IMG/VR virus record: IMGVR_UViG_3300045988_040311
Coordinates: 1-11,775 of that record
Direction: 5' to 3' (one strand)
DNA from: a virus
Length of the DNA: 11,775 nt
The translations under genes and the position numbers were made by a program. Shown here one piece after another: positions 1 to 11,775 of this stretch. The notes beneath the pieces are model-generated. The model saw nothing but the letters and a program-made list of their open reading frames with translations, was not told the origin of the DNA and did not search any database. Positions within the stretch are counted from its first letter, which is position 1, and each line of letters begins with the position of its first letter.

Positions 1-49
1 ACGAGATTACGTACGGTGACTGGAGTTCAGACGTGTGCTCTTCCGATCT
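1..49. other. Illumina TruSeq indexed adapter (reverse complement); technical sequence, not biology
   Basis: 16-49 = GTGACTGGAGTTCAGACGTGTGCTCTTCCGATCT. 8-15 is the reverse complement of the 8-nt index CGTACGTA. 1-7 is the reverse complement of ATCTCGT. The segment is the exact reverse complement of 11727-11775. Confidence 0.95.
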
Positions 50-69
50 AAATATGCACAACGACCCCT

Positions 70-111
70 TTTTTAACTTTTCCCAACACATTTTTAACAT
101 TCGCCAACAGA
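70..111. repeat. Tandem 21-bp direct repeat inside the ITR (TTTTTAAC-N5-CCAACA-type), mirrored at 11665-11706
   Basis: 70-90 tttttaacttttcccaacaca versus 91-111 tttttaacattcgccaacaga, 17/21 identical. The period of 21 bp is about two helical turns. Confidence 0.6.
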
Positions 112-145
112 GTTTGGCACGCTTTTTGCATAGGCCGTGCCAAAC
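112..145. repeat. ITR hairpin/inverted repeat: 10-bp perfect stem, 14-nt loop (mirrored at 11631-11664)
   Basis: 112-121 gtttggcacg is the reverse complement of 136-145 cgtgccaaac. The loop is ctttttgcataggc. Confidence 0.6.
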
Positions 146-251
146 CTCCATAAACCTAAAGAAAAAAAGCACCTACGAACAGCTATTTGGCCCGATATTT
201 GCATAGCAAAAAAACAAAAAATAACCTTTTAAGATATTTTAATACTAAAAA

Positions 252-285
252 TTTGCATTAAGTACACAAAGTAACTACCTTTGCA
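252..285 (+). promoter_or_regulatory. Candidate early promoter, Bacteroidota sigma-AB type (-33 TTTG / -7 TAnnTTTG)
   Basis: TTTG at 252-255, a 20-nt spacer, then TAccTTTG at 276-283 followed by CAAT. It lies 35 nt upstream of the first ATG (318). The architecture matches the element at 7524-7557. Confidence 0.6.
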
Positions 286-317
286 ATATCAAAATTAAAA
301 AACAAAACATTACAGCA

Positions 318-578
318 ATGAAATACGGCATTTATTACACAGCGAGTAACAGCGACGACAATCACCAAAAAAAGTCACGGGGGTGGTACAACGAAGTACC
401 TTATAGCACATTGAGACAAGCAAAAGCTGCCTTAGAGGGCGTTGCGTGTATGCTCACTGAAGATTGTTACAAGTGCACTTACAAAGATAGATTAACGATG
501 ACGGCTGAGCGCACAGACAACAAGCCGCAGCCCACCACCGACCGCGTTATATTTCATATTTGCGTATATCACTACTAA
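318..578 (+). CDS. Hypothetical early protein (86 aa)
   Basis: First ORF downstream of the candidate early promoter, on the same strand as all other genes. No motif recognised. Confidence 0.55.
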   Translation: MKYGIYYTASNSDDNHQKKSRGWYNEVPYSTLRQAKAALEGVACMLTEDCYKCTYKDRLTMTAERTDNKPQPTTDRVIFHICVYHY

Positions 579-589
579 AATATAATACA

Positions 590-943
590 ATGGCAACTAC
601 AGCACAAATGTACGATGAGATTACACGAATATTGCGCGTAACTCGTAACAATGTAGAACACGAGGCAGAACGTAACAATTCGCAATTACTTAGCGATGTT
701 GCGGTAACTATCGACAACATTGCAACCTTAGTACAAAACATTAGTACTGAGATAAAGACAGCACAAGAGGAAGAAAGTGACGCTTTTGTAATTGCTTGTG
801 CTTACATTATTAACAGAGGCTTATCTAACGATTTTACAACGTTCTTAAGAGAAAAAGTTGCAACATCAAGCGAGAGATACAACCACGAGTTTTACAACAA
901 TGCGTACAACTTATTTATAGAACGTTTCACGAAGCGAGTTTAG
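590..943 (+). CDS. Hypothetical early protein (117 aa from ATG 590; the track ORF starts at 560)
   Basis: The ORF track gives 560..943. ATG 590 avoids overlap with the upstream ORF (stop at 578). The sequence looks mostly helical and no family was recognised. Confidence 0.6.
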   Translation: MATTAQMYDEITRILRVTRNNVEHEAERNNSQLLSDVAVTIDNIATLVQNISTEIKTAQEEESDAFVIACAYIINRGLSNDFTTFLREKVATSSERYNHEFYNNAYNLFIERFTKRV

Positions 944-957
944 AACCTATTATACAC

Positions 958-971
958 GTTCCACGTGGAAC
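958..971. promoter_or_regulatory. Perfect 14-bp palindrome GTTCCACGTGGAAC in an intergenic gap (candidate operator/dimer-binding site)
   Basis: gttccacgtggaac equals its own reverse complement. It lies between the stop at 943 and the ATG at 989. Confidence 0.4.
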
Positions 972-988
972 ACAAACCAACAAACGAA

Positions 989-1198
989 ATGAAAAAGAAG
1001 ATTTTAAAGAAAGTAGGTACATTTATTTTTTGTATCTCTTACATTCTTGTTGTGGTGTCTGTACTTTACGGCTTGTGCATGGCTTTGCAAAGTTGCTCAA
1101 TGTACAAGCAGACCGACATTAACGGCCGTACAACAATTGTAACTACCGACACAACGTACATTAACCACAACACATTACTTAAATATCAAGAGAAATGA
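989..1198 (+). CDS. Small membrane protein, possible lipoprotein (69 aa from ATG 989; the track ORF starts at GTG 965)
   Basis: MKKKILKK is followed by a long hydrophobic stretch (VGTFIFCISYILVVVSVLYGLCMAL) and a lipobox-like LQSC. GTG 965 lies inside the palindrome, so ATG 989 is preferred. Confidence 0.55.
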   Translation: MKKKILKKVGTFIFCISYILVVVSVLYGLCMALQSCSMYKQTDINGRTTIVTTDTTYINHNTLLKYQEK

Positions 1199-1365
1199 AC
1201 GAAGACAGAAACGCATTCGATGAAGCGATATTTACCGCTTGTACATCATTAGGCCAACTTATGACCACCAAAGAAGTTAACGCGAACACTCGCACACTTC
1301 TTAAAATCTCGAAGTTTAGAAACTTCTTGATGAACCTCAGCAACGAACACAGCACCAACAATTAA
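1195..1365 (+). CDS. Small hypothetical protein (56 aa), below the ORF-track length cutoff
   Basis: Hand translation gives MNEDRNAFDEAIFTACTSLGQLMTTKEVNANTRTLLKISKFRNFLMNLSNEHSTNN*. The start overlaps the upstream stop as ATGA. It fills an otherwise empty 180-nt gap. The minus-strand track ORF 1179..1361 is its shadow. Confidence 0.5.
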   Translation: MNEDRNAFDEAIFTACTSLGQLMTTKEVNANTRTLLKISKFRNFLMNLSNEHSTNN

Positions 1366-1376
1366 CATTTTGAGTT

Positions 1377-1730
1377 ATGACAAGTTTCGCAGAAAAGTAC
1401 AACAAGGGCAATAAAAACCCCTTTAAGTTTGACATTAAAGACTACGTATTTACGAGCCTTAAGGAGTTATACAATGCTAAACCTAACGAGGTCCACTCGT
1501 TAGACGGCTTTTACTTCACCCGCAGCAAATTTGGTGTAAAAGTCGTGGTGGTTATGTCGGACGTCAAAAAGCTTGTTGATATGCCGATCTACCTAACAAA
1601 GATGTTTAATGACATTGTAAATGACACGGACGCGGTGAATGACATCAAGAGCGGCAAAGTTGGTTTTATTGTACGTAAGTACGAGAGCCACGGCCGTAAC
1701 TGTCACACTATTACTTTTACAGATAAGTAA
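1377..1730 (+). CDS. Hypothetical early protein (117 aa); weak candidate ssDNA-binding protein
   Basis: It sits just upstream of the TP/polymerase pair, where phi29-type phages encode p5/p6. The C-terminal GKVGFIVRKYESHGRNCHTITF loosely resembles the phi29 p5 C-terminus as I remember it. The functional call is speculative. Confidence 0.5.
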   Translation: MTSFAEKYNKGNKNPFKFDIKDYVFTSLKELYNAKPNEVHSLDGFYFTRSKFGVKVVVVMSDVKKLVDMPIYLTKMFNDIVNDTDAVNDIKSGKVGFIVRKYESHGRNCHTITFTDK

Positions 1731-1743
1731 GTTACACGCACCG

Positions 1744-1779
1744 GGGTAGGTGGTTAATAACTGCCTACCCTTTTAATTT
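1744..1779 (+). terminator. Rho-independent terminator after the early gene block
   Basis: Stem gggtaggtgg (1744-1753) pairs with ctgcctaccc (1761-1770), including two G-U pairs. The loop is ttaataa and ttttaattt follows. Confidence 0.65.
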
Positions 1780-1785
1780 GATATT

Positions 1786-2454
1786 ATGAGGTTAAAAGGT
1801 AAAATAGAATACGCTAATACTACTTTAAGCGCAACGAAACGTGCCGAACTCAAAAAAGAAATTTTGGAGAGTTACGAAAGTAGTCCCGAACTGCGTAAAG
1901 AAATAAGACGTGTGTTTCATCAAGCAAATAGACGTATTCAAAACGTTGAGAGCAAAGGTCTATTAAGCCCCGCGGTAAAAGCCTTGAATAAAGGAGGTAT
2001 TGAGGGTTTCAGCAAATTTGCGGTCGGTGATTTATCATGGGACGAGTTAAAACTAGAATACGCAAAAGCGGTTGCCTTTTTAAAACAGCCTACCAGTACA
2101 GCAGGTGGAACACGAGAATACAACGAGCATTTAAAAAAGGCGTACAATCTTACAGACGATGAATTTAATTTAATGGCCGATAGAATAAACGATAAGATAC
2201 AAAGTATATCGGACACCGATTTTGTTGAAAAATATTTAATGCGTTACAAAGATTTTACGGGCGATTTGGAGAGTGAAGCCGCGGACGTAAGTAGCCAAAT
2301 AGAAAGTGACGCGGTGAGCCTTGAAAACGCACTAGACCGAGATTTGGAAAAAGCGGCAAACGAAAAGACAAACGAAATAGAAGAAGATGTACACAACGCC
2401 TTACAAGGTGCTTTAAATTCAATCCTAGATACATTTGACAAATTTGGATTATGA
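1786..2454 (+). CDS. Candidate terminal protein (222 aa)
   Basis: It lies immediately upstream of the protein-primed polymerase and overlaps it by ATGA (2451-2454). Its size is close to phi29 gp3 (266 aa). It has a basic N-terminal part and a very acidic C-terminal part. The assignment rests mainly on synteny. Confidence 0.5.
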   Translation: MRLKGKIEYANTTLSATKRAELKKEILESYESSPELRKEIRRVFHQANRRIQNVESKGLLSPAVKALNKGGIEGFSKFAVGDLSWDELKLEYAKAVAFLKQPTSTAGGTREYNEHLKKAYNLTDDEFNLMADRINDKIQSISDTDFVEKYLMRYKDFTGDLESEAADVSSQIESDAVSLENALDRDLEKAANEKTNEIEEDVHNALQGALNSILDTFDKFGL

Positions 2455-4637
2455 AAAAGATAACGTATGAACAACATAGTGGTATTTATAAGGCAACCGA
2501 CATACAAGATATTTTGCAGTTGGCCGTAAACGACAAAAACGTAATAGGCAATAACAAAGGGTGTAAATTTTACAACGTCCCTTGTGCATTTGATATAGAA
2601 GTAAGTAGTTTTTACCGAGACGAAGACGGCAACACATATACATACGAGCAGTACAGCAAATTAGGGGTAAAAATGGAAAAGTGTGCCATTATGTACGTGT
2701 GGCAATTTGGTATAAATGGGTACGTAATAGTTGGCCGAACATGGGACGAGTTCGCAGTTATGTGTAACACGATAGCAAAAACGTTGGGGTTATCAGCGAA
2801 CAAAAAAATAATTGTGTACATACACAATTTATCATACGAATTTCAGTTTTTTCGCACCCTTTTTGAGTGGGAAAAGGTTTTTAGTATTGATTTGCGCAAA
2901 CCCCTATACGCAACTACAACTATAGGTATAGAATTTAGGTGCAGCTACTTGTTAAGCGGTTATAATTTGGCAAAATTAGGCGAGCAACTACAAAAGTACA
3001 AATGTGCAAAAATGGTTGGAGATTTGGACTACACCAAAATACGACACACACAAACAGAGTTAACACCGAAAGAATTGCTTTATTGCGTGAATGATATAAA
3101 AGTAGTGATGAACTACATACAAGAGCAATTGGAGCAAAACAAGTTAATAACAAGATTACCCCTAACAAAAACGGGGTATGTGCGTAAACATTGCCGCAAA
3201 GCAATGCTAAGCAAAAATGTTAACGGAAAAACCGCGCGTAATTGGGAATGTATCAATTTAATACAGTCTTTAAATATCAACGGCCTACATGAGTTTAATA
3301 TGCTACAAAGGGCGTTTAGTGGCGGCTTTACTCATGGCAACGCCAACCATATAGATGAAATATGTGAAAACGTTGCGAGTTACGATTTTACAAGTAGTTA
3401 CCCTTATGTTATGGTGTCTGAAAAATTCCCTATGAGTAAGGGGGTACGAGTGAACCCCCGAAACATGAAAGAATTCGAGTACTACACAAGTAAGTACCTG
3501 TGTATCTTTGACGTGGAATTTACCAACATTTTTGCAAAAGAATTGCAAGATAACCCTATAAGTGTAAGCAAATGCTATGTCAAGGTAAACCACGTAGAAA
3601 ACAATGGCCGTTTAGTTTGTGCTGCAAAGGTAGCCACTACAATAACAAACATAGACTACAACATAATACGCAACTTTTACACGTGGGGCGGTGTCCGTAT
3701 CGGCGCAATGTATTGCTATAAGGCCGACTATTTGCCAACTGATTTTGTACGTACCATTTTGGACCTATATGAAAATAAGACAAAGTTAAAAGGCGTGCAA
3801 GGAAAAGAAGTGGAGTATCTAAATAGTAAGGAAATGCTAAACAGTTGCTACGGTATGTGTGTTACTAACCCTTTGCGTGATGAGTTCGTATATGACGGCA
3901 AATGGGACGAAAACACACTAACAGACAGCGAAAAAGCAGAAATGTTGCAGAAGTACAACGAAAGTAAAAACCGCTTTTTGTTTTACCCTTGGGGCGTATT
4001 TGTTACCGCCTATGCAAGGCGCAATTTATTTACAGCGATTTATGAGGCAAAGCAAGATTACATTTACAGCGATACAGACAGCATAAAGTTAAAGAACGCA
4101 GCAGCACATAAGCGGTATTTTAATATGTATAACAATGTAGTATATAACAAATTAAAGGAAGCGTGTAAACATCACAACATAGACTTTGCCAAATGCGAAC
4201 CCGAAACCATTAAGGGAGTTACTAAAACGTTAGGCGTTTGGGACTACGAGGGGACATACAAACGTTTTAAGACGTTAGGCGCAAAGAGATATATGGTGCA
4301 AGAAGAAAACGCACTTAATGTAGGCGGCAAAAGTTATGAATATAGCCTAACAATTAGCGGTGTCAACAAAAAATCGGCTATACCATACCTCGTTAAAAAG
4401 TATGGTGACAACATATTTAACGCCTTTACAAATTACCTTGAATTTCCACGCGAAGCCACGGGCAAAAATATACATACGTACATAGACTACAAAATAACGG
4501 GTGAAGTTACCGACTATCAAGGTAAAAAATGTACATTTGCAGAAAACACGGGTGTACATTTAGAGCCAACAAGTTATAATTTATCATTAAGTGTGATGTA
4601 TCTAAATTATCTAAAGGGTATAAAATTAAAAGACTGA
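2451..4637 (+). CDS. Protein-primed family-B DNA polymerase (728 aa)
   Basis: Exo I is FDIE (D48/E50, nt 2592-2600). Exo II is HNLSYEF (N126..E130). Exo III is YCVND (Y211..D215). Motif A is DFTSSYPY. Motif B is KEMLNSCYG. Motif C is YSDTDS (nt 4065-4082). The KxY motif is GAKRY. The order and wording match phi29 gp2-type polymerases. Confidence 0.95.
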   Translation: MKKITYEQHSGIYKATDIQDILQLAVNDKNVIGNNKGCKFYNVPCAFDIEVSSFYRDEDGNTYTYEQYSKLGVKMEKCAIMYVWQFGINGYVIVGRTWDEFAVMCNTIAKTLGLSANKKIIVYIHNLSYEFQFFRTLFEWEKVFSIDLRKPLYATTTIGIEFRCSYLLSGYNLAKLGEQLQKYKCAKMVGDLDYTKIRHTQTELTPKELLYCVNDIKVVMNYIQEQLEQNKLITRLPLTKTGYVRKHCRKAMLSKNVNGKTARNWECINLIQSLNINGLHEFNMLQRAFSGGFTHGNANHIDEICENVASYDFTSSYPYVMVSEKFPMSKGVRVNPRNMKEFEYYTSKYLCIFDVEFTNIFAKELQDNPISVSKCYVKVNHVENNGRLVCAAKVATTITNIDYNIIRNFYTWGGVRIGAMYCYKADYLPTDFVRTILDLYENKTKLKGVQGKEVEYLNSKEMLNSCYGMCVTNPLRDEFVYDGKWDENTLTDSEKAEMLQKYNESKNRFLFYPWGVFVTAYARRNLFTAIYEAKQDYIYSDTDSIKLKNAAAHKRYFNMYNNVVYNKLKEACKHHNIDFAKCEPETIKGVTKTLGVWDYEGTYKRFKTLGAKRYMVQEENALNVGGKSYEYSLTISGVNKKSAIPYLVKKYGDNIFNAFTNYLEFPREATGKNIHTYIDYKITGEVTDYQGKKCTFAENTGVHLEPTSYNLSLSVMYLNYLKGIKLKD
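4530..4542 (+). promoter_or_regulatory. Possible internal promoter -7 box (TGTACATTTGCAG) upstream of the ATPase gene
   Basis: TAcaTTTG lies at 4532-4539. The 13-mer is identical to 5777-5789. It is inside the polymerase 3' end, about 100 nt before ATG 4642, and has no good -33 TTTG. Confidence 0.3.
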
Positions 4638-4641
4638 AACA

Positions 4642-5772
4642 ATGAAGAAAGAAACAAATAAGAAAGAAACGATAAAATTTTACTCGCTCACAAACATATT
4701 AAACAAAAATGCAGATTATAACATAATATTTGGCGAGCGTTCGAACGGCAAAACTTACGCCACTTTGGCGTATGGTATTAAACGTTACATACAGACGGGC
4801 GAACAAATGGCCTATATACGTAGGTGGCGCGAGGATTTACGCGGCAAACGTGCTGAAAATCTGTTTGCTAACCACGTGGCAAACGGGTATATTGAAGAAG
4901 TAACAAATGGAGAATTTAACTCTGTATTTTATATTGGCGGTAAATGGTATCTTGCAAAATACGACCACGAAAAAAAGAAGTACGTACCACAAACTACACC
5001 TTTTTGCTATGGTTTTTGCTTATCAGAGCAAGAGCACGAAAAAAGTAGCAGTTACCCCAACGTTACCACGATTGTTTTTGATGAGTTTTTAACTCGTAGG
5101 TACTATTTGCCCGATGAATTTATGTTGTACATGAACTTGTTAAGTACCATAATAAGACAGCGAGACAACGTTAAAGTATTTATGCTTGGTAACACAATAA
5201 ACAAGTTTTGCCCCTACTTCACCGAAATGGGGTTGAAGCAAGTAACGAACATGGAACAAGGCACTATCGACATATACAAGTTTGGGAAACATGGTGCAGT
5301 AGTGGCGGTGGAGTATTGCAGTACCATTGTTAAACAAAAAGCAAGTAACAAGTACTTTTGCTTTGATAATCAAAATCTTGAAATGATAACGGGCGGCAAA
5401 TGGGAAATGGCGGCCTATCCACATTTGCCCACGAAGTACAAACCAAATGACGTGCTTTTTGTGTATTACATTGTATTCAATGAATATATTTTGCAAGGCA
5501 ACATTATTCAGCACGGAAACGAAAACTTTACGTATATCCACCTAAAGACCACCCCTATAAAAGACCCCGACAACGCGCTAATATATAGCCTAACGATGAA
5601 CGGGAAACCCAACTACAAAAGAAAGTTACTAAGTAGCGCTACATACCTAGAAACGCAAGTTGCGCGGTACTTTGCAACTGATAAAGTATTTTACCAAAAT
5701 AATGAGGTTGGCGAGATTGTGAGAAATTATTTAATGACTTCAGCAAAAACTAACATTGTAAGTATAAAATAA
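4642..5772 (+). CDS. DNA encapsidation/packaging ATPase, phi29 gp16-like (376 aa)
   Basis: Walker A is GERSNGKT (nt 4732-4755). Walker B is TTIVFDE (D147/E148, nt 5080-5085). The size and single-subunit arrangement are typical of the protein-primed podovirus packaging ATPase. Confidence 0.85.
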   Translation: MKKETNKKETIKFYSLTNILNKNADYNIIFGERSNGKTYATLAYGIKRYIQTGEQMAYIRRWREDLRGKRAENLFANHVANGYIEEVTNGEFNSVFYIGGKWYLAKYDHEKKKYVPQTTPFCYGFCLSEQEHEKSSSYPNVTTIVFDEFLTRRYYLPDEFMLYMNLLSTIIRQRDNVKVFMLGNTINKFCPYFTEMGLKQVTNMEQGTIDIYKFGKHGAVVAVEYCSTIVKQKASNKYFCFDNQNLEMITGGKWEMAAYPHLPTKYKPNDVLFVYYIVFNEYILQGNIIQHGNENFTYIHLKTTPIKDPDNALIYSLTMNGKPNYKRKLLSSATYLETQVARYFATDKVFYQNNEVGEIVRNYLMTSAKTNIVSIK

Positions 5773-5776
5773 TTTC

Positions 5777-5789
5777 TGTACATTTGCAG
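5777..5789 (+). promoter_or_regulatory. Candidate late promoter -7 box (TAcaTTTG, 5779-5786) in the ATPase/late-operon gap
   Basis: It is intergenic, 21 nt upstream of ATG 5807. There is only a partial -33 (aTTG at 5755-5758). The 13-mer TGTACATTTGCAG is shared with 4530-4542. Confidence 0.5.
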
Positions 5790-5806
5790 TAATAAAACCT
5801 TACAAA

Positions 5807-6013
5807 ATGGATATTACACAAGTCACACAAATGATTTCAAATGTTGGTTTTCCCATCGCAATGTGCTTAATCGTATTTTATTACATGACAAAACACGATG
5901 AGCAGCACAAAGAGGAAACAGACAACCTACGTACAACTTTGGAGGATAACACCAAAGTTTTAAGCGAGTTATCAACCCTTATAAAAACCTTGACAGATGG
6001 CAAAGAAAGATAA
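5807..6013 (+). CDS. Small single-pass membrane protein (68 aa), YvrJ-like; holin/lysis candidate
   Basis: The N-terminal segment ISNVGFPIAMCLIVFYYM is hydrophobic and resembles the YvrJ-family signature as I remember it. A charged helical tail follows. It is the first gene of the late block. Confidence 0.6.
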   Translation: MDITQVTQMISNVGFPIAMCLIVFYYMTKHDEQHKEETDNLRTTLEDNTKVLSELSTLIKTLTDGKER

Positions 6014-7034
6014 CTTGTACTTAAAGTATCAAGAGCAAATAAAAAACAAAGACAAAAGCGTAAATGGCTACATTCGAAAGATGTTAGCCATCACGCAAGC
6101 CATGTTTGAGTACAAAGGTTTACCCGAAACGTTACCCCAAAACAATTTGGAAAACCTTTTGCAGACCAACGGCAATGTTTTTGTAACTGAGGTAGACGGC
6201 AAAATGTACGCTTTTACTGGTGGTCTTGGAGGTGTACCCAACGCGTACAATGAGGCAACCGAGTACATTGTAAGTAACCCCTACCTCAACCTTAACAAGT
6301 CGTACAAAATAGGAGTTGAAGGCGTCCTAATTAAAAACGATAGTGGTGCAAATAGCCTTTTACCTATCTTCGGTAAATATGGTGTATTGTGTAGTGATAC
6401 GCTTTTGTCGCTTAATACGTGTTCGGTACTCTCTCGTATCACTATGTTAATAAGTGCGAGCGATGACAAGACAAAGCAAAGCGCGGACGATTTTGTAAAC
6501 AAAATCATGCAAGGGGATTTTTCAGTGATTGGCGAAAACGCATTTTTTAAGGGGGTGAACTTGCAAAGCATTTCCACGCAGAGCGCGAACCAAATAACGC
6601 AACTTATTGAACTACTTCAATACTTCAAGGCGTCCGCCTTTAATGAAATAGGCCTAAACGCTAACTACAACCTAAAGCGCGAGCGGTTGAATACAAGCGA
6701 GGTGCAAATGAATGTGGACGCCCTAAACCCCTACGTTGATAATATGCTGCAAGAGCAAAAAAAGGCAGTAGAAAAAATAAACGCTATGTTTGGCACTGAA
6801 ATTAGTGTAGAGTTGGGTAGTAGTTGGGCGATACGCAAAGAAGAAAACAAAACCGAAAACGAAGACAATGAAGATAATAAAAATAATACTTCTGATAGTG
6901 GCGAAAGTGCTAGTGAACAGAAAGAAGAGGAAGTAACAGAAACGGAAACCGAAACCGAAACGGAAACCGAAACGGAAACCGAAACGGACAACGAAAAGGA
7001 CGAAGAAAACGAAGAAGAAAATGAAAATAATTGA
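5997..7034 (+). CDS. Portal (upper collar/connector) protein, phi29 gp10-like (345 aa), with a long acidic low-complexity C-terminal tail
   Basis: Several blocks are collinear with remembered phi29 gp10. MAKKDN...MFEYKGLPETLP matches MARKRS...LFEWENLPPTI. NEATEY matches NQATVF. GLNANYNLKRERLNTSEV matches GIKNANLEKKERMVTDEV. AVEKINAMFGTEISVEL matches ACEKINELYGLNVKVKF. Confidence 0.9.
   Translation: MAKKDNLYLKYQEQIKNKDKSVNGYIRKMLAITQAMFEYKGLPETLPQNNLENLLQTNGNVFVTEVDGKMYAFTGGLGGVPNAYNEATEYIVSNPYLNLNKSYKIGVEGVLIKNDSGANSLLPIFGKYGVLCSDTLLSLNTCSVLSRITMLISASDDKTKQSADDFVNKIMQGDFSVIGENAFFKGVNLQSISTQSANQITQLIELLQYFKASAFNEIGLNANYNLKRERLNTSEVQMNVDALNPYVDNMLQEQKKAVEKINAMFGTEISVELGSSWAIRKEENKTENEDNEDNKNNTSDSGESASEQKEEEVTETETETETETETETETDNEKDEENEEENENN
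6936..6983 (+). repeat. In-frame hexanucleotide microsatellite (ACS-GAA)x8 encoding (Thr-Glu)8
   Basis: The sequence is aca gaa acg gaa acc gaa acc gaa acg gaa acc gaa acg gaa acc gaa, then acg gac. It lies inside the portal C-terminal acidic tail. Confidence 0.9.
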
Positions 7035-7590
7035 CCTTTACCCCGACCCTAAACACGGCCTATTTACGGAGGTGTTCAAACCAAATTTTGCCACGGAATA
7101 CGCTGCAATATTTGGCGACCTTAATAGTGTCGGCCTTGATACGCTTGTACTACTCAACTACAGCGAGCGAGAGTGTATCAACACCATAACACAAGCCAAC
7201 GCCAACGAGTATATAAAAAATATCATTGCGTTGAGTGTTAATAATTGGGTACGTGTTGCGAGTGCCTACAATGCGCAATATGATGTACTTAACCCTATAC
7301 AGCAGCAGACAACACGCGAAGACAAGACCACCGAAAGCGCGAACAATAACAACACAAATGTTTCGTCTAATAAGCCATACAACGAAAAGGATTTTGTGGA
7401 GTACGACAAAGATAGTACCACGTACGACAATACACGTACTAACGATGTGACGAGTACACAAAAGGTTGTAGGCCTTGGCTCGAAGTCAGCAACGGACGAA
7501 CTTACAAAGGAAATTGAATTTAATTTGCAAAATTGGCGCAAAAGTATTATTTTTGCAATTATAAATGATATAACTAAATTAATATACTAA
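7021..7590 (+). CDS. Virion-module protein (189 aa); candidate lower collar/head-tail adaptor, alternatively scaffold
   Basis: It directly follows the portal with a 14-nt overlap, as gene 11 follows gene 10 in phi29. It has helical N- and C-terminal parts flanking a polar T/N/D-rich middle that could form an extended beta-hairpin. The function is inferred from position only. Confidence 0.55.
   Translation: MKIIDLYPDPKHGLFTEVFKPNFATEYAAIFGDLNSVGLDTLVLLNYSERECINTITQANANEYIKNIIALSVNNWVRVASAYNAQYDVLNPIQQQTTREDKTTESANNNNTNVSSNKPYNEKDFVEYDKDSTTYDNTRTNDVTSTQKVVGLGSKSATDELTKEIEFNLQNWRKSIIFAIINDITKLIY
7524..7557 (+). promoter_or_regulatory. Candidate promoter for the major capsid gene (-33 TTTG / -7 TAttTTTG)
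   Basis: TTTG at 7524-7527, a 20-nt spacer, then TAttTTTG at 7548-7555 followed by CAAT. Spacing and flanks match the early promoter at 252-285. It lies 37 nt upstream of ATG 7592, inside the 3' end of the preceding ORF. Confidence 0.55.
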
Positions 7591-7591
7591 C

Positions 7592-8761
7592 ATGGAAGTA
7601 AAACAAATTTTTACCCTAATAAATTCCGTATCTGAGGAAGTATTGGGAACAACAGAACTTGTTAGCGAGGATTTAACGGGCCTTGTCGATTTGGGTAATG
7701 AGGTTTTTAACCAAAACGCGGTAGACAATTACGTAAAATCACTTGTTAACCACATTGGCAAAGTTGTGTTTGTCAATCGTCCTTACGCGGGCAAAATCCC
7801 CTCTGTACTTATGGACGCATGGGAATTTGGTTCAGTACTCGAAAAAATTAGCGCGGACCTGCCAGAGGCCGAAGAGAATAAAAGTTGGGAACTAACGGAC
7901 GGTACCGACTACTCACAAGATGTATTCCATAAGCCACAAGTTACGGCAAAGTTCTTCAATTCAAAGGTAACTTTCGAGGTGCCCGTTTCTATAACCGAGC
8001 GACAAGTTAAGGAGAGTTTTAGCAACGCTGAGCAACTTAACGCGTTTCTTTCGATGATTTACAACGCGGTGGAGAAGTCTATCACCATAAAGACAGACGC
8101 GTTAATTATGCGTACTATCAATAACATGATAGCACAAACTTTAATAGCTGATAACGAGGCCTTTGGTGGCGATAAAATCGACTACGCAACCAATAGCACC
8201 GCCCGTTGTGTCAACTTGCTAAAGTTGTACAAAGATAACAAAGGTACTACTTTGACCGCTGCAAAGGCGCTGACCGACCCCGATTTTATCAAATTCGCTA
8301 GTTACACAATCGGTTTGTACACGGATAGACTCGCCAGTATTTCTAGCGCCTTTAACATTGGAGGTAAGCCACGCTTTACCCCTCGCGAAAACTTACACGT
8401 TGTACTACTTTCGGACTTCGAAAAGGCCGCGCGTGCGTACTTGTACAGCGATACGTACAACAAAGAGCAGGTACTATTGCCTAACGCGGAAAGTGTTCCA
8501 TTTTGGCAGGGAAGCGGCACAAAGTACGATTTTGCAAGCACGGCACACATCGACATCACGGAGACAGGCGGCAAACCCGTTAAAATTAGCGGCGTACTTG
8601 GCGTTATGTTCGATCGAGAAGCGTTAGGCGTTTGTAACCTCAACCGCCGCGTAACTACTAACTATAACGCAAAGGCCGAGTTCTTTAATAACTATTACAA
8701 GTTTGATGCTGGCTACTTCAACGATACAAACGAAAACTTTGTAGTTTTCTTCGTTGCTTAA
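7592..8761 (+). CDS. Major capsid protein, phi29 gp8-like (HK97 fold expected), 389 aa, without a C-terminal Ig-like extension
   Basis: NAVDNYVKSLVNHIGKVVFVNR is collinear with phi29 gp8 NDFITSLVDRIGLVVIRQ. ESFSNAEQLNAFLSMIYNAVEKS is collinear with [23 protein letters not shown]. The gene has its own promoter and a strong downstream terminator. Confidence 0.85.
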   Translation: MEVKQIFTLINSVSEEVLGTTELVSEDLTGLVDLGNEVFNQNAVDNYVKSLVNHIGKVVFVNRPYAGKIPSVLMDAWEFGSVLEKISADLPEAEENKSWELTDGTDYSQDVFHKPQVTAKFFNSKVTFEVPVSITERQVKESFSNAEQLNAFLSMIYNAVEKSITIKTDALIMRTINNMIAQTLIADNEAFGGDKIDYATNSTARCVNLLKLYKDNKGTTLTAAKALTDPDFIKFASYTIGLYTDRLASISSAFNIGGKPRFTPRENLHVVLLSDFEKAARAYLYSDTYNKEQVLLPNAESVPFWQGSGTKYDFASTAHIDITETGGKPVKISGVLGVMFDREALGVCNLNRRVTTNYNAKAEFFNNYYKFDAGYFNDTNENFVVFFVA

Positions 8762-8781
8762 TTGTATTGAGTTGTGATTGA

Positions 8782-8822
8782 GGGTGTAAGGTGTAAACAA
8801 CTTTACACCCTTTTAAATTTTT
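8782..8822 (+). terminator. Rho-independent terminator after the capsid gene
   Basis: ggtgtaaa (8790-8797) pairs with tttacacc (8802-8809) around the loop caac. An alternative 5' arm is gggtgtaa at 8782-8789. The tract ttttaaattttt follows. Confidence 0.7.
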
Positions 8823-8828
8823 ACAAAT

Positions 8829-9278
8829 ATGGTATCAGTAAATTTTTACAACTATAATGGAGATATACGGGTGATAAATAAAACACTACCTACACCCGTT
8901 AATATACCTTGCGAGTTGCGGAAAAGTTTTAACGTGTTAACCCCTACTTTATTAGTAAGAAGAACAACACCCCCAAATTTTAACTACTGCGAAATAGATA
9001 GTTTAGGGCGTTTCTATTCAATTACTGACGTTAAATTTGTAGGTAATTATACCTACGAAATTTCTCTAAAAGTTGACGTTCTGAAAACGTATGAAACGGC
9101 AATTTTACAGACAAAAGCAAGGGTAACAGAAACAGACAACGCGAACCCCTACATATCTAACAGAGAAAACGTATTTAATCGTGTACCTAATTTTGAAAAG
9201 GTTGAATTTCCTAATAAAAACCTATTAGACGAAAACGGCCAAATTGTTATGGTAACACTGAAAGGTACTAACAATTAA
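8829..9278 (+). CDS. Tail-knob N-terminal domain protein (phi29 gp9 N-terminus-like), 149 aa
   Basis: NFNYCEIDSLGRFYSITDVKFVGNYTYEISLKVDVLKTYE parallels phi29 gp9 [39 protein letters not shown]. This is a Caud_tail_N-type domain (family name from memory). Confidence 0.7.
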   Translation: MVSVNFYNYNGDIRVINKTLPTPVNIPCELRKSFNVLTPTLLVRRTTPPNFNYCEIDSLGRFYSITDVKFVGNYTYEISLKVDVLKTYETAILQTKARVTETDNANPYISNRENVFNRVPNFEKVEFPNKNLLDENGQIVMVTLKGTNN

Positions 9279-9288
9279 ACTATAAAAT

Positions 9289-11508
9289 ATGGCACTTGCA
9301 AAAATTAAAATACATGGTAGTTTTCTACATTGTAAACCCGTACCCGATTATATAGAAGTACCACAAAACCTCGATGTTGTAGTAGTTGCTGATGATGGCT
9401 TTATATTCAAGGAAACAGATATGCCCCGTATTGTTTACGACCAATATGTTTCACACTATGAATATAAATTCGACAAGATTACAGAAGACGGGAAAAAAGC
9501 TATTTTTAATAACTACTTCAACGATGGCTTAAAAAATGTACAAATAACCGCAACCGCTTACGAAAGCGGTGTGACCCCTGGCAAACAGATACCCGTAATC
9601 ACTAAGCTAACTAATTGCGCCGCTAACGCTGACCTACACACAGAAGTAGAAGTGGGTAAAACTTTGATCGTTACACTAACGGCAAATGAAGGGTATAAAT
9701 TCGATGCCGCCAAAAGTACACCAAACTTTTCGTACGATGACGAGAGCTACAACGCTATAATTAAAAATTTTACTATTTCGGAAGACGGAGCAACCGCAAC
9801 GGGCAAAATAGTTATAGGAAATTGGGACGATTTCCAAATAAGGGGTACAGCGTACACCATACCTACCCCCGTTAAAAAGGTTGCTGTAACTACTGCCCTA
9901 ACTAATTGCACCGCTAATAGCGACCTACACACAGAAGTAGAGGTGGGCCGAACTTTAAGCGTTACACTAACAGCTAACACGGGGTGCGTATTTGATAAAA
10001 CAAAAAGTGTACCCGCGTTTTCTTATAGCGATGAAAACGCAGTTACTAAAGAAAAACCCTTTACTATCTCTGAAAATGGTAAAACAGCAACGGGCGAAAT
10101 AGTTATGGGTGATTACTCCAATTTTATAATAAAAGGTGAAGCATACACCCAAACTACCCCCGTTAAAAAGGTTGCAGTAACTACCGCCCTAACTAATTGC
10201 ACAGCTAACGCTGACCTACCCACAGAAGTAGAAGTGGGGCAAACTTTAAACGTTACGCTAACAGCGAAAGAAAGTGCTTTGTTTGATGCAAACAAAAGTA
10301 CACCTTATTTCTCATACACTAATGAAAATTTGGACCCCGTAGAAAAGAAATTTACTATTTCAAGCGATAACAGAATCGCAACGGGCAAAGTAGTTATGGG
10401 TGATTGGGAAGACTTCACAATAACAGGTACAGCGTACACACAACCTACACCCGTTAAAAAGGTAGAGGTAGAATCTAATCTTTCTAATTGCACCGCTAAC
10501 GCTGACCTACCCACAGAAGTAGAGGTAGGGCAAACTTTAAAAGTTACACTAACAGCAAATGAGAATACTAAATTTGATGCAACCAAAAGTACACCTCATT
10601 TCTCATATCAAGATGAACACCTTGATTTTAGAACACAAAACCTTACTATTTCAGAAGATAACCTAACAGCAACGGGCGAAATAGTTATGGGGGATTGGGA
10701 TTTGTTCACCATAGAGGGCGAAGCATACCCTGTGGCGGTGGTAGGTGGTAAATATGGTGCGGTTAATGTTTACCTAGTTACTAATGATAACCTAAACGAA
10801 TTTAGTACAAAACGTTTCTTCCGTGTAACGGGTACAGACCCAGAAACGGGCGCGGCTATTTACGATAATGTAGATTTAGGCGACTACGTGAACAAGATTG
10901 TACGTATATATACCCCGATAAAAGCAAGTAGTACAGATGTTATACGATGCGGTAACTACAATACTAAAATAAGATGTTACCAACCCGAAACCGACAAAAT
11001 TACACTCAATTTCGGAGATATCACAATACCTAACCACAATAAAAATAACGTGGATTTTGAAAGCGTTGTGCAATTGTTTTTGCCTTTCTTGGGATTCGTG
11101 AATATTCCAAATGATTACATAGGTAAAACTATAAATTTACAATATGTTATTAACGTTCTAACGGGTAATGCGAGCGCGTTAATATCTTGTAACGGGGTTG
11201 TATTCCAAGTTGAAGAAACAGAACCAAAAACCAACGTTTTATACCTATCACAAAACACAGAGAGCAAAACGATAGGCGGTGACGATTGGAACGAACGGCT
11301 ATTTTACGGAATAGAACCATACGTTTTACTAAAATGGTTTAGTAGTTTGGGTGAGGGTTTGAATAATGACCGAAAAAGCGGTAATATTGGTAGTTTTACG
11401 GGTTTTTCGCGTTTCGATGATGTAGAACCTATCAGCGCAGAAAATATGATGATAGAAGAACAAAAACAAATTTACGATTTGTTGAGTAGTGGTATTTACG
11501 TAGAATAG
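9289..11508 (+). CDS. Large tail protein (739 aa): five tandem 97-aa beta-rich repeat domains fused to a gp9-like tail-knob C-terminal region
   Basis: aa 1-485 are 5 x 97-aa repeats (the first degenerate). aa 486-739 carry LFLPFLGFVNIP...LTGNASALISC and a terminal EEQKQIYDLLSSGIYVE. The latter parallels the phi29 gp9 end NDLQEIRTIFDNGITLWH. Confidence 0.75.
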   Translation: MALAKIKIHGSFLHCKPVPDYIEVPQNLDVVVVADDGFIFKETDMPRIVYDQYVSHYEYKFDKITEDGKKAIFNNYFNDGLKNVQITATAYESGVTPGKQIPVITKLTNCAANADLHTEVEVGKTLIVTLTANEGYKFDAAKSTPNFSYDDESYNAIIKNFTISEDGATATGKIVIGNWDDFQIRGTAYTIPTPVKKVAVTTALTNCTANSDLHTEVEVGRTLSVTLTANTGCVFDKTKSVPAFSYSDENAVTKEKPFTISENGKTATGEIVMGDYSNFIIKGEAYTQTTPVKKVAVTTALTNCTANADLPTEVEVGQTLNVTLTAKESALFDANKSTPYFSYTNENLDPVEKKFTISSDNRIATGKVVMGDWEDFTITGTAYTQPTPVKKVEVESNLSNCTANADLPTEVEVGQTLKVTLTANENTKFDATKSTPHFSYQDEHLDFRTQNLTISEDNLTATGEIVMGDWDLFTIEGEAYPVAVVGGKYGAVNVYLVTNDNLNEFSTKRFFRVTGTDPETGAAIYDNVDLGDYVNKIVRIYTPIKASSTDVIRCGNYNTKIRCYQPETDKITLNFGDITIPNHNKNNVDFESVVQLFLPFLGFVNIPNDYIGKTINLQYVINVLTGNASALISCNGVVFQVEETEPKTNVLYLSQNTESKTIGGDDWNERLFYGIEPYVLLKWFSSLGEGLNNDRKSGNIGSFTGFSRFDDVEPISAENMMIEEQKQIYDLLSSGIYVE
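9580..10743 (+). repeat. Tandem 291-bp coding repeats x4 (9580, 9871, 10162, 10453), plus a degenerate fifth copy at 9289-9579
   Basis: The LTNC(T/A)AN(A/S)DL(H/P)TEVEVG(x)TL(x)VTLTA block recurs with a period of exactly 97 aa (Cys at aa 110, 207, 304, 401). The repeated minus-strand shadow ORFs in the track reflect the same repeats. Confidence 0.9.
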
Positions 11509-11526
11509 AAGCAAATGCTTATGCAA

Positions 11527-11566
11527 ATAGCGCGCCAAAATATTTTGGTGCGCTATTTTTGTTTTG
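11527..11566 (+). terminator. Rho-independent terminator after the tail gene, abutting the right ITR
   Basis: The stem runs 11527-11539 against 11544-11556 (atagcgcgccaaa / tttggtgcgctat, one G-U pair) with an atat loop. The tract ttttgttttg follows. Confidence 0.7.
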
Positions 11567-11726
11567 TTGCTATGCAAATATCGGGCCAAATAGCTGTTCG
11601 TAGGTGCTTTTTTTCTTTAGGTTTATGGAGGTTTGGCACGGCCTATGCAAAAAGCGTGCCAAACTCTGTTGGCGAATGTTAAAAATGTGTTGGGAAAAGT
11701 TAAAAAAGGGGTCGTTGTGCATATTT
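11567..11726. repeat. Right inverted terminal repeat (160 bp)
   Basis: It is the exact reverse complement of 50-209 and ends ...GGGGTCGTTGTGCATATTT-3', followed by the A-tail and the adapter. Confidence 0.95.
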
Positions 11727-11775
11727 AGATCGGAAGAGCACACGTCTGAACTCCAGTCACCGTACGTAATCTCGT
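11727..11775. other. Illumina TruSeq indexed adapter read-through (AGATCGGAAGAGCACACGTCTGAACTCCAGTCAC + index CGTACGTA + ATCTCGT); technical
   Basis: It matches the remembered TruSeq adapter sequence exactly. The leading A is the library A-tail. Confidence 0.95.

Follow-up and report, generated by a model that had tools for sequence, protein, structure and literature searches.

How is the tip of the tail built in a miniature phi29-like phage in which no separate tail fibre or spike gene is detected among the open reading frames (ORFs)? The question is raised by IMG/VR virus record IMGVR_UViG_3300045988_040311, of which positions 1 to 11,775, i.e., the whole stretch of DNA analyzed here, are referred to as the window. 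Its last two genes encode proteins of 149 and 739 amino acids, and an earlier note, made from the letters alone, had proposed that these are the halves of one tail knob of the phi29 gp9 type, with an array of five repeated domains inserted between them. We conclude that one knob protein has indeed been split, with a putative beta-sandwich array between its halves. This conclusion is supported by related phages in which both halves form a single chain, by the conservation of the split, and by a relative in which the two genes are fused in frame. The two products probably assemble as a two-subunit knob, with the small subunit as the collar-proximal ring, the C-terminal module of the large subunit as the distal tube, and six five-domain chains projecting from it. 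Taken as a whole, the earlier observation is partly confirmed: its gene structure, its repeats and the absence of a loop stood, while a direct likeness of the distal half to gp9 did not.

The two knob genes and their single-chain relatives

The features of the two genes, all on the + strand, are as follows.

8829-9278, +: gene for the proximal knob subunit, 149 amino acids, whose homologue in single-chain knobs is their tube-protein-like N-terminal domain
8829-9119, +: residues 1-97, a confidently folded beta-sandwich domain in the AlphaFold2 (AF2) model
9120-9275, +: residues 98-149, a conserved tail, disordered in the monomer model (predicted local distance difference test, pLDDT, 41-56)
9279-9288, +: spacer of 10 nt, ACTATAAAAT, without a Shine-Dalgarno motif
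9289-11508, +: gene for the distal knob subunit, 739 amino acids, with five putative beta-sandwich domains followed by the conserved 253-residue knob module
9289-9582, +: domain 1, residues 1-98, a divergent repeat copy, 24-28% identical to units 2-5
9583-10746, +: four tandem 97-residue units (residues 99-195, 196-292, 293-389 and 390-486), 58-65% mutually identical, putatively immunoglobulin-like (Ig-like) or InlB-B-repeat-like
10747-11505, +: C-terminal knob module, residues 487-739 (253 residues), whose homologous region in single-chain knobs is the distal two-thirds
11224-11262, +: former loop site, residues ~646-658 (approximate), a short polar loop where the pLDDT dips to 55-72
11401-11505, +: C-terminal motif GFSRFDDV...EEQKQIYDLLSSGIYVE, the counterpart of gp9 NYVQT...DLQEIRTIFDNGITLW, the hhalign comparison not being significant

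The 149-residue ORF stops at TAA 9276-9278, and the 739-residue ORF starts at ATG 9289 in another frame, which is closed upstream by TAA 9283-9285. Joining the two frames in the window would thus take not only a frameshift but also the loss of two stop codons. The ORF positions, the 10-nt gap, the frame change and the in-frame TAA are all verified from the sequence, and the exclusion of a simple frameshift fusion, as originally put forward, is borne out.

All ORFs of more distant small phi29-like genomes were scanned with profiles of the small protein and of the C-terminal module of the large protein. In MT836155, one ORF (465-residue open frame; 460 residues from the first Met) is matched at both ends, at its N-terminus by the small-protein profile (E = 1.7e-10) and at its C-terminus by the module profile (E = 2.3e-11). 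The small-protein profile is matched as well by an ORF of MT836263 (487-residue open frame; 471 residues from the first Met) and by a 439-residue ORF of Amedibacillus phage AD70P2, a cultured phage of a Gram-positive host, in which this ORF lies directly after the capsid gene. A scan of IMG/VR yielded 80 further loci with full-length single-chain relatives, on contigs of ~13 kb. These single-chain knobs are 439-487 residues long, and no Ig-like domains are inserted in them. With the IMG/VR relatives, hhalign places the small-protein family on residues 3-126 of the single-chain protein (98.7%, E = 2e-16) and the module family on residues 151-460 (99.0%, E = 8e-18, 245 columns). That is, both halves map onto one chain, and the window proteins are therefore two parts of one ancestral-type polypeptide. 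The point of fission and insertion is at about residues 127-150 of the single-chain protein, just past the N-terminal domain. The single-chain INTERMEDIATES are the decisive evidence for the split.

Every cultured relative (astrithr, Phanie, Entb_47, DU_PP_III and K58 g2) has the two-gene arrangement, and so do the 69 homologues of the small protein from metagenomes, all of which are stand-alone proteins of 137-174 residues encoded on ~11-kb contigs from many samples; one cluster at 98% identity comprises 55 member sequences. Because the split is conserved across cultured relatives and metagenomic homologues, a sequencing error is excluded.

In P0193 (locus L006, 6001-7875, on a contig from Logan SRR28426505), both knob genes are fused in frame and the inserted domains are retained. 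The junction reads ...MVTLKGNEN-DTEPTATNNITDLDVN-MPVVISGD..., in which DTEPTATNNITDLDVN is a 16-residue linker. The fusion occurs on two contigs, and is the sole such case among the 150 listed representatives. Gene fusion is classic evidence that two products act together. The fusion in P0193 thus argues that the two products act as one unit, and it shows the array to behave like an insertion separating the two halves.

Likeness of the two halves to gp9-type knobs

The small-protein family was represented by a profile of 42 sequences, which was searched against all PDB sequences. Exactly two matches were obtained, namely C1 gp12 (4eo2, E = 0.018, residues 50-128) and Andhra gp12 (8egs, E = 0.16), and both lie in the N-terminal domains of these knobs. 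When the small-protein family is compared with the gp9 family using hhalign, FYSITDVKFVGNYTYEISLKVDVLKTYETAI is paired with gp9 residues 91-121 (E = 0.0014); with the C1 and Andhra knobs added to the gp9 family the comparison gives 79% and E = 1.6e-5, and with these two knobs alone 77% over 91 columns. A BLASTP comparison of the small protein with phi29 gp9 is not significant, and phmmer searches of each knob ORF against the PDB sequences returned nothing relevant. Thus, the claimed match of the 149-residue ORF to the N-terminal domain of gp9 holds in the family alignment, for exactly the block that had been named, and fails in the pairwise search. Pfam and PHROGs searches of both knob ORFs gave only BatD and StcE beta-sandwich matches (E = 0.02-0.06). 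One homologue of the small protein carries the NCBI name 'major tail protein'.

The AF2 model of the small protein has mean pLDDT values, over blocks of 10 residues, of ~82-94 up to residue 90, and of 63 over residues 91-100. With this model, Foldseek retrieves neck/stopper proteins, phi29 gp9 (probability 0.97), C1 gp12 (0.99, TMq 0.44) and the Andhra knob, with nothing below E = 1e-3. The best matches are neck/stopper proteins, i.e., SaPI1 9mu3_C (E = 3e-3) and then 8gtf_M; the E-values for gp9 and C1 gp12 are 0.03-0.04. Neck/stopper matches are to be expected, because the knobs' N-terminal domain has the fold of the tube/stopper proteins (PMC9710869, PMC11476376). We thus find in the small protein a gp9-type N-terminal, tube-protein-like beta-sandwich domain.

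Within the small-protein family, the C-terminal 50 residues belong to the most conserved, despite the low confidence of the model in this region, and are rich in invariant or near-invariant residues (R112, P120, F127, G137, M141, T143 and G146). This tail aligns with residues ~103-126 of the single-chain relatives. It would serve as a linker or interface that folds only against the large subunit.

The C-terminal module of the large protein is matched by 1023 cluster representatives. In all 148 of the listed full-length matches inspected it is located at the C-terminus, behind N-terminal extensions of 41-780 residues. Its AF2 model (pLDDT 86.9) resembles, in a Foldseek search of BFVD, the large protein of Astrid (E = 1.7e-15) and other uncharacterised podophage proteins (E = 1e-17 to 1e-7), and HHpred matches have been reported for relatives (PMC11476376). 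The matches of the module in the PDB are low-probability jelly-roll and lectin-like folds. BLASTP of the large protein against phi29 gp9 gives E = 0.097, which is not significant. When the module is compared with knob alignments by hhalign, the E-values are 0.075-0.6, with its last ~45 residues always paired with the last ~45 of the knob. The strings cited earlier as gp9-like C-terminal features are present in the protein, and their direct likeness to gp9 is not above chance by BLASTP, hhalign, PDB profiles or Foldseek.

The homology of the module to gp9 would instead hold through the single-chain intermediates, not through direct comparison. The C-terminus of the single-chain proteins, GYVQT...EIQEVNDLLNGGVYIE, aligns with gp9 residues 552-583 (NYVQT...DLQEIRTIFDNGITLW; E = 0.0086-0.04). 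More generally, hhalign of the single-chain proteins against the gp9 family gives three collinear blocks, one in the N-terminal domain (E = 0.0034), one in the loop (E = 0.051) and one at the C-terminus (E = 0.0086). Chance is an unlikely explanation for all three, because they are collinear and the gene position is shared. Pfam searches of the single-chain relatives find no knob families.

At the position of the gp9 L-loop, the single-chain relatives carry a hydrophobic, uncharged stretch of ~60 residues rich in Gly, Ala and Ser, such as GNSLGATTSAVGVLGSLASGNLGGAVASGINGI in AD70P2, and hhalign shows that L011 carries an insertion of ~60 residues at the loop site of the window. In a composition scan of phi29 gp9, the best 30-residue window contains 22 Gly/Ala/Ser residues and no charge; the best in the large protein contains 10 Gly/Ala/Ser residues and 5 charges. 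The reported absence of a gp9-like Gly/Ala-rich, uncharged loop is thus verified, by both composition scan and alignment.

A more distant gut phage, MT836125.1 (locus L010), has split genes as well (1068-2966 and 2953-3477, minus strand; 175 aa + 633 aa). This phage keeps a Gly/Ala/Ser-rich hydrophobic loop (residues 512-541, with a weak match to the Microcin V family of Pfam) even though its knob is split. Splitting and loss of the loop are therefore separate events, the loss of the loop being the later one, and MT836125 is an intermediate between the single-chain knobs and the loop-less form in the window.

The repeat array, the proposed assembly and its alternatives

Tandem Repeats Finder reports a period of 291 nt, in 3.8 copies, at 9607-10700. 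The array had been described as five repeats of 97 residues; the repeats are there, in the form of four similar units and one divergent domain. Among close relatives (P0070-P0095, at least 76% identical), 1, 2, 3 or 4 units are found, giving proteins of 448, 545, 642 and 739 residues, respectively, and the divergent domain 1 is kept in all of these variants. The copy number in the window is unusually high, and the four units form a recent tandem array. In a second lineage, the length of the large protein steps through 527, 614 and 703 residues.

To characterize the fold of the units, a profile of 40 sequences was used. Its matches are weak and are all to Ig-type folds, i.e., designed Ig domains (E ~1e-3), nanobodies, an adnectin and the BIg domains of an ice-binding adhesin. 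Individual members give weak matches, none of which reaches the curated cut-offs; these are to Flg_new_2 (the InlB B-repeat family) for 9 of the 40, and to Big_7/8/9, BACON or CBM families for others. Ig-like folds have been reported for the corresponding domains of Phanie, Astrid, DU_PP_III and a Bacteroidales metagenome-assembled genome (MAG) (PMC11476376). These weak profile matches and the published models of relatives suggest that the repeat units are Ig-like.

Our proposal for the assembly of the two-subunit knob is as follows. By analogy with the solved knobs, the tube-like beta-sandwich of the 149-residue product would form a ring that docks on the lower-collar tube, and its C-terminal 50 residues, unfolded in isolation, would most likely wrap onto the second subunit, whose last 253 residues would complete the knob. 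The assembly is presumed to be hexameric, and from each knob subunit the five Ig-like domains would project sideways as mini-fibres, each of them monomeric. The Gly/Ala loop that is membrane-active in gp9-type knobs has been lost. We infer that the array is most likely the adhesin, since no separate fibre or spike gene is found, the array is variable, and domains of this kind generally behave in this manner.

Several results weigh against this interpretation. Although the model of the module is of good confidence (pLDDT 86.9), a Foldseek search of the PDB yields no knob in its top 50 matches, with a best E-value of 0.054, so that the structural comparison with solved knobs lends the C-terminal module no support. 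Likewise, profiles of the module (A2), of its last 68 residues (A4) and of the single-chain relatives (A6) retrieve no knob from the PDB sequences. The Pfam models that would mark a gp9 relative, PF16838 (Caud_tail_N) and PF20934, are both present in all 120 gp9 relatives listed, and match none of the 42 small-protein family members and neither of the window proteins, even at E <= 10. The link from the single-chain proteins to gp9 is made up of blocks that are individually weak, and the Ig-like assignment of the repeats sits below all curated thresholds.

An alternative is that the array, rather than being a host adhesin, is a device by which the tail of a helper myophage is docked, and that the losses of the loop and of the endolysin reflect helper dependence. 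According to the account given in PMC11476376 of Pourcel et al. 2024, virions of the satellite-like Acinetobacter phage Phanie become infectious only once they have bound the contractile tail of phage Aci01-1. Phanie, which has a two-gene knob with six Ig-like domains, carries the helper tail distally, and as far as that account goes the authors suggest an involvement of these domains (PMC11476376). Compatible with this alternative, the window phage lacks the Gly/Ala loop and has no recognisable endolysin, which is present in all cultured relatives. However, among the relatives reviewed such dependence is reported for Phanie alone (PMC11476376); the Salmonella and Pectobacterium phages, like Phanie itself, are isolates according to the same source, and a host or an isolation source is given in the records of the Enterobacter, Shigella and Vibrio phages. 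Moreover, the repeat units of the window differ in sequence type from those of Phanie, and there is no sign of a helper in the sample. We therefore consider it unlikely that the lineage is helper-dependent in the manner of Phanie, with an expandable Ig-like array that captures the tail of a co-infecting phage rather than, or besides, the host surface. If true, helper capture would make 'tail borrowing' widespread among very abundant ~11-kb gut podophages, considering the 1023 module-bearing representative clusters.

It is very unlikely that the 739-residue protein is an ordinary fibre or receptor-binding protein with an anchor unrelated to gp9, and the 149-residue protein a separate neck, stopper or tube-terminator protein. 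This explanation draws on the top Foldseek matches of the small protein (SaPI1 9mu3_C and 8gtf_M) and on the lack of a significant fold or profile match of the module to any solved knob. The former are, however, expected from the fold that knob N-terminal domains share with tube and stopper proteins (PMC9710869, PMC11476376). Furthermore, in related phages a single polypeptide aligns with both proteins (98.7-99%), and that polypeptide, whose gene in AD70P2 immediately follows the capsid gene, in the position of gene 9, bears a gp9-like Gly/Ala loop and C-terminal motif. An unrelated fibre plus a neck protein was thus rejected, as the single-chain relatives join both halves.

That the two ORFs are a sequencing or assembly artefact of one real gene, for which the single fused frame of P0193 could be cited, is extremely improbable and was rejected on comparative evidence, i.e., the 69 stand-alone homologues with their 55-member cluster at 98% identity, the split annotated in astrithr, Phanie, Entb_47, DU_PP_III and K58 g2, and the two stop codons and the frameshift that would need to be undone.

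The genome and comparison with known systems

The window of 11,775 bases is a complete linear phage genome of ~11.7 kb, with all genes on the + strand. The other features are listed below.

2451-4637, +: family-B protein-primed DNA polymerase
4642-5772, +: packaging ATPase, phi29 gp16-type
5807-6013, +: holin-like protein, 68 amino acids (phrog_4898, E = 1.4e-11)
5997-7034, +: connector, phi29 gp10-type
7021-7590, +: 189-residue protein occupying the place of the shortened lower collar (tail tube); its gene is collinear with those of astrithr gp07, Phanie gp7 and the like
7592-8761, +: major capsid protein, phi29-type
8780-8812, +: terminator-like hairpin between the capsid and knob genes, a 13-bp stem followed by a T-run
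11525-11558: terminator-like hairpin with a T-run after the large knob gene

Both ends of the window carry a perfect inverted repeat of 220 nt. The outermost 49 nt on each side (1-49 and 11727-11775) are an Illumina TruSeq index adapter, ACGAGAT-index-GTGACTGGAGTTCAGACGTGTGCTCTTCCGATCT, and match unrelated GenBank records, e.g., MS2 and Andhra. Thus, the real genome spans ~50-11726 and begins with AAATATGCAC, and the true terminal repeat accounts for ~171 bp of the 220. In a megablast search of the whole window against GenBank phages, the adapter ends alone were matched, and no near relative was found.

Profile searches gave no match for the 189-residue protein encoded at 7021-7590, onto which the knob should dock; the genes at this position in astrithr (gp07) and Phanie (gp7) have been assigned as shortened lower collars (PMC11476376). 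The C-terminus of the connector (window 6935-7021) is a very acidic tail of low complexity (…TETETETETETETETDNEKDEENEEENENN), encoded by tandem repeats of 6, 12 and 18 nt, and this stretch of the gene overlaps the start of the next one. The hairpin at 8780-8812 could lower the expression of the knob relative to the capsid. No Shine-Dalgarno motif (GGAG, GAGG or AGGA) is found within 25 nt upstream of any of the 14 + strand genes, where the sequence is A/T-rich. This absence points to a host in which translation starts without Shine-Dalgarno pairing, which may be a member of the Bacteroidota, although the closest capsid proteins are those of phages of Proteobacteria. No endolysin or tail-lysin domain was recognised in any ORF of the window by Pfam, PHROGs and further scans, and the 739-residue ORF is followed, past 11509-11555, by the terminal repeat, with no lysin gene downstream. 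The window has the traits of its lineage, i.e., a size of ~11-14 kb, inverted repeats at the termini, a family-B DNA polymerase of the protein-primed type, and neither a separate fibre gene nor a spike gene. We thus assign it to a miniature phi29-like, protein-primed podophage that is an uncultured member of the Astrithrvirus-like lineage.

The solved knobs, phi29 gp9, C1 gp12 and Andhra gp12 (5FB5, 4EO2 and 8EGS; PF16838 plus PF20934), share with the window an N-terminal tube-like domain and a gene beside that of the capsid protein and, via the single-chain intermediates, the order of the blocks, i.e., N-terminal domain, Gly/Ala loop and C-terminal motif. They differ in having 574-599 residues in one chain, compared with 149 + 253 residues in the window when the insert is left aside, and the window differs from them in having no Pfam match, no fold match for the distal half among the top 50 Foldseek matches, and no membrane-penetrating L-loop.

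The single-chain knobs of AD70P2, of the gut MAGs MT836155 and MT836263 and of the IMG/VR relatives are alike to the window proteins in that both halves are homologous and in the same order, and in the C-terminal ...L..GV.IE motif. Unlike the window form, they consist of one polypeptide, have no Ig-like insertion and retain the Gly/Ala/Ser loop of ~60 residues.

The closest likeness is to the Astrithrvirus-like phages. The gene order is collinear in Salmonella astrithr, Acinetobacter Phanie, Enterobacter Entb_47, Pectobacterium DU_PP_III and Vibrio K58 g2, with the capsid gene followed by those of a ~147-residue protein and of a large protein, and their capsid proteins are 54-59% identical to that of the window, those of astrithr, Phanie, Entb_47 and K58 g2 at 56-59%. 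Their small proteins, such as astrithr gp09 and Phanie gp9, are homologous to the one studied here (hmmsearch with profile A1, E = 5.7e-25 for astrithr, 1.4e-26 for Entb_47, 4.2e-19 for Phanie and 2.1e-17 for K58 g2), with 30-33% identity by tblastn. The C-termini of their large proteins (astrithr gp10 and Phanie gp10) show 23-26% identity by tblastn, with E-values down to 1e-11. The hmmsearch of the module profile A2x against these relatives (E = 1e-45 to 1e-56) is not an independent comparison, as its alignment includes astrithr, Entb_47, Phanie and DU_PP_III. Also shared are extra domains before the module, in the window putatively beta-sandwiches, the lack of a Gly/Ala loop, and a genome of ~11-12 kb with terminal repeats.

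There are differences as well. The knob proteins of the cultured relatives are just 23-33% identical to those of the window, and the repeat units of the window are of another sequence type, with no tblastn match outside the module; for Phanie, tblastn with the 739-residue protein gives no match at all. In the window the four units are a recent tandem array, of variable copy number in close relatives. Shine-Dalgarno motifs are absent from the window, and so is the endolysin gene that in astrithr, Phanie, Entb_47, DU_PP_III and K58 g2 lies directly after the large knob gene. The endolysin is a common neighbour of the knob in these relatives, not a defining part of it.

A two-gene knob with Ig-like insertions has been described for the Astrithrvirus-like phages of Gram-negative hosts (Evseev et al. 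2024, PMC11476376, section 2.6 and Discussion), with AlphaFold models of Astrid, DU_PP_III and Phanie that follow the same plan (PMC11476376); as related there, Pourcel et al. 2024 (J Virol 98:e00667-24) described the same split knob. This architecture was thus already published in 2024, and the window phage is a new, uncultured member of this group. Because the architecture is known, the main value of the present analysis lies in its confirmation in an uncultured lineage and in what is added to it. That is, the single-chain intermediates locate the point of fission, and MT836125 provides an intermediate that is split and still has the loop; the in-frame fusion in a relative argues independently that the two products work jointly; the array changes by whole units of 97 residues, as would be expected of an element that tunes host range or reach; and the module proves to be very common in metagenomes. 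If the array is an adhesin, these phages would offer a minimal model in which receptor binding is part of the tail tube itself.

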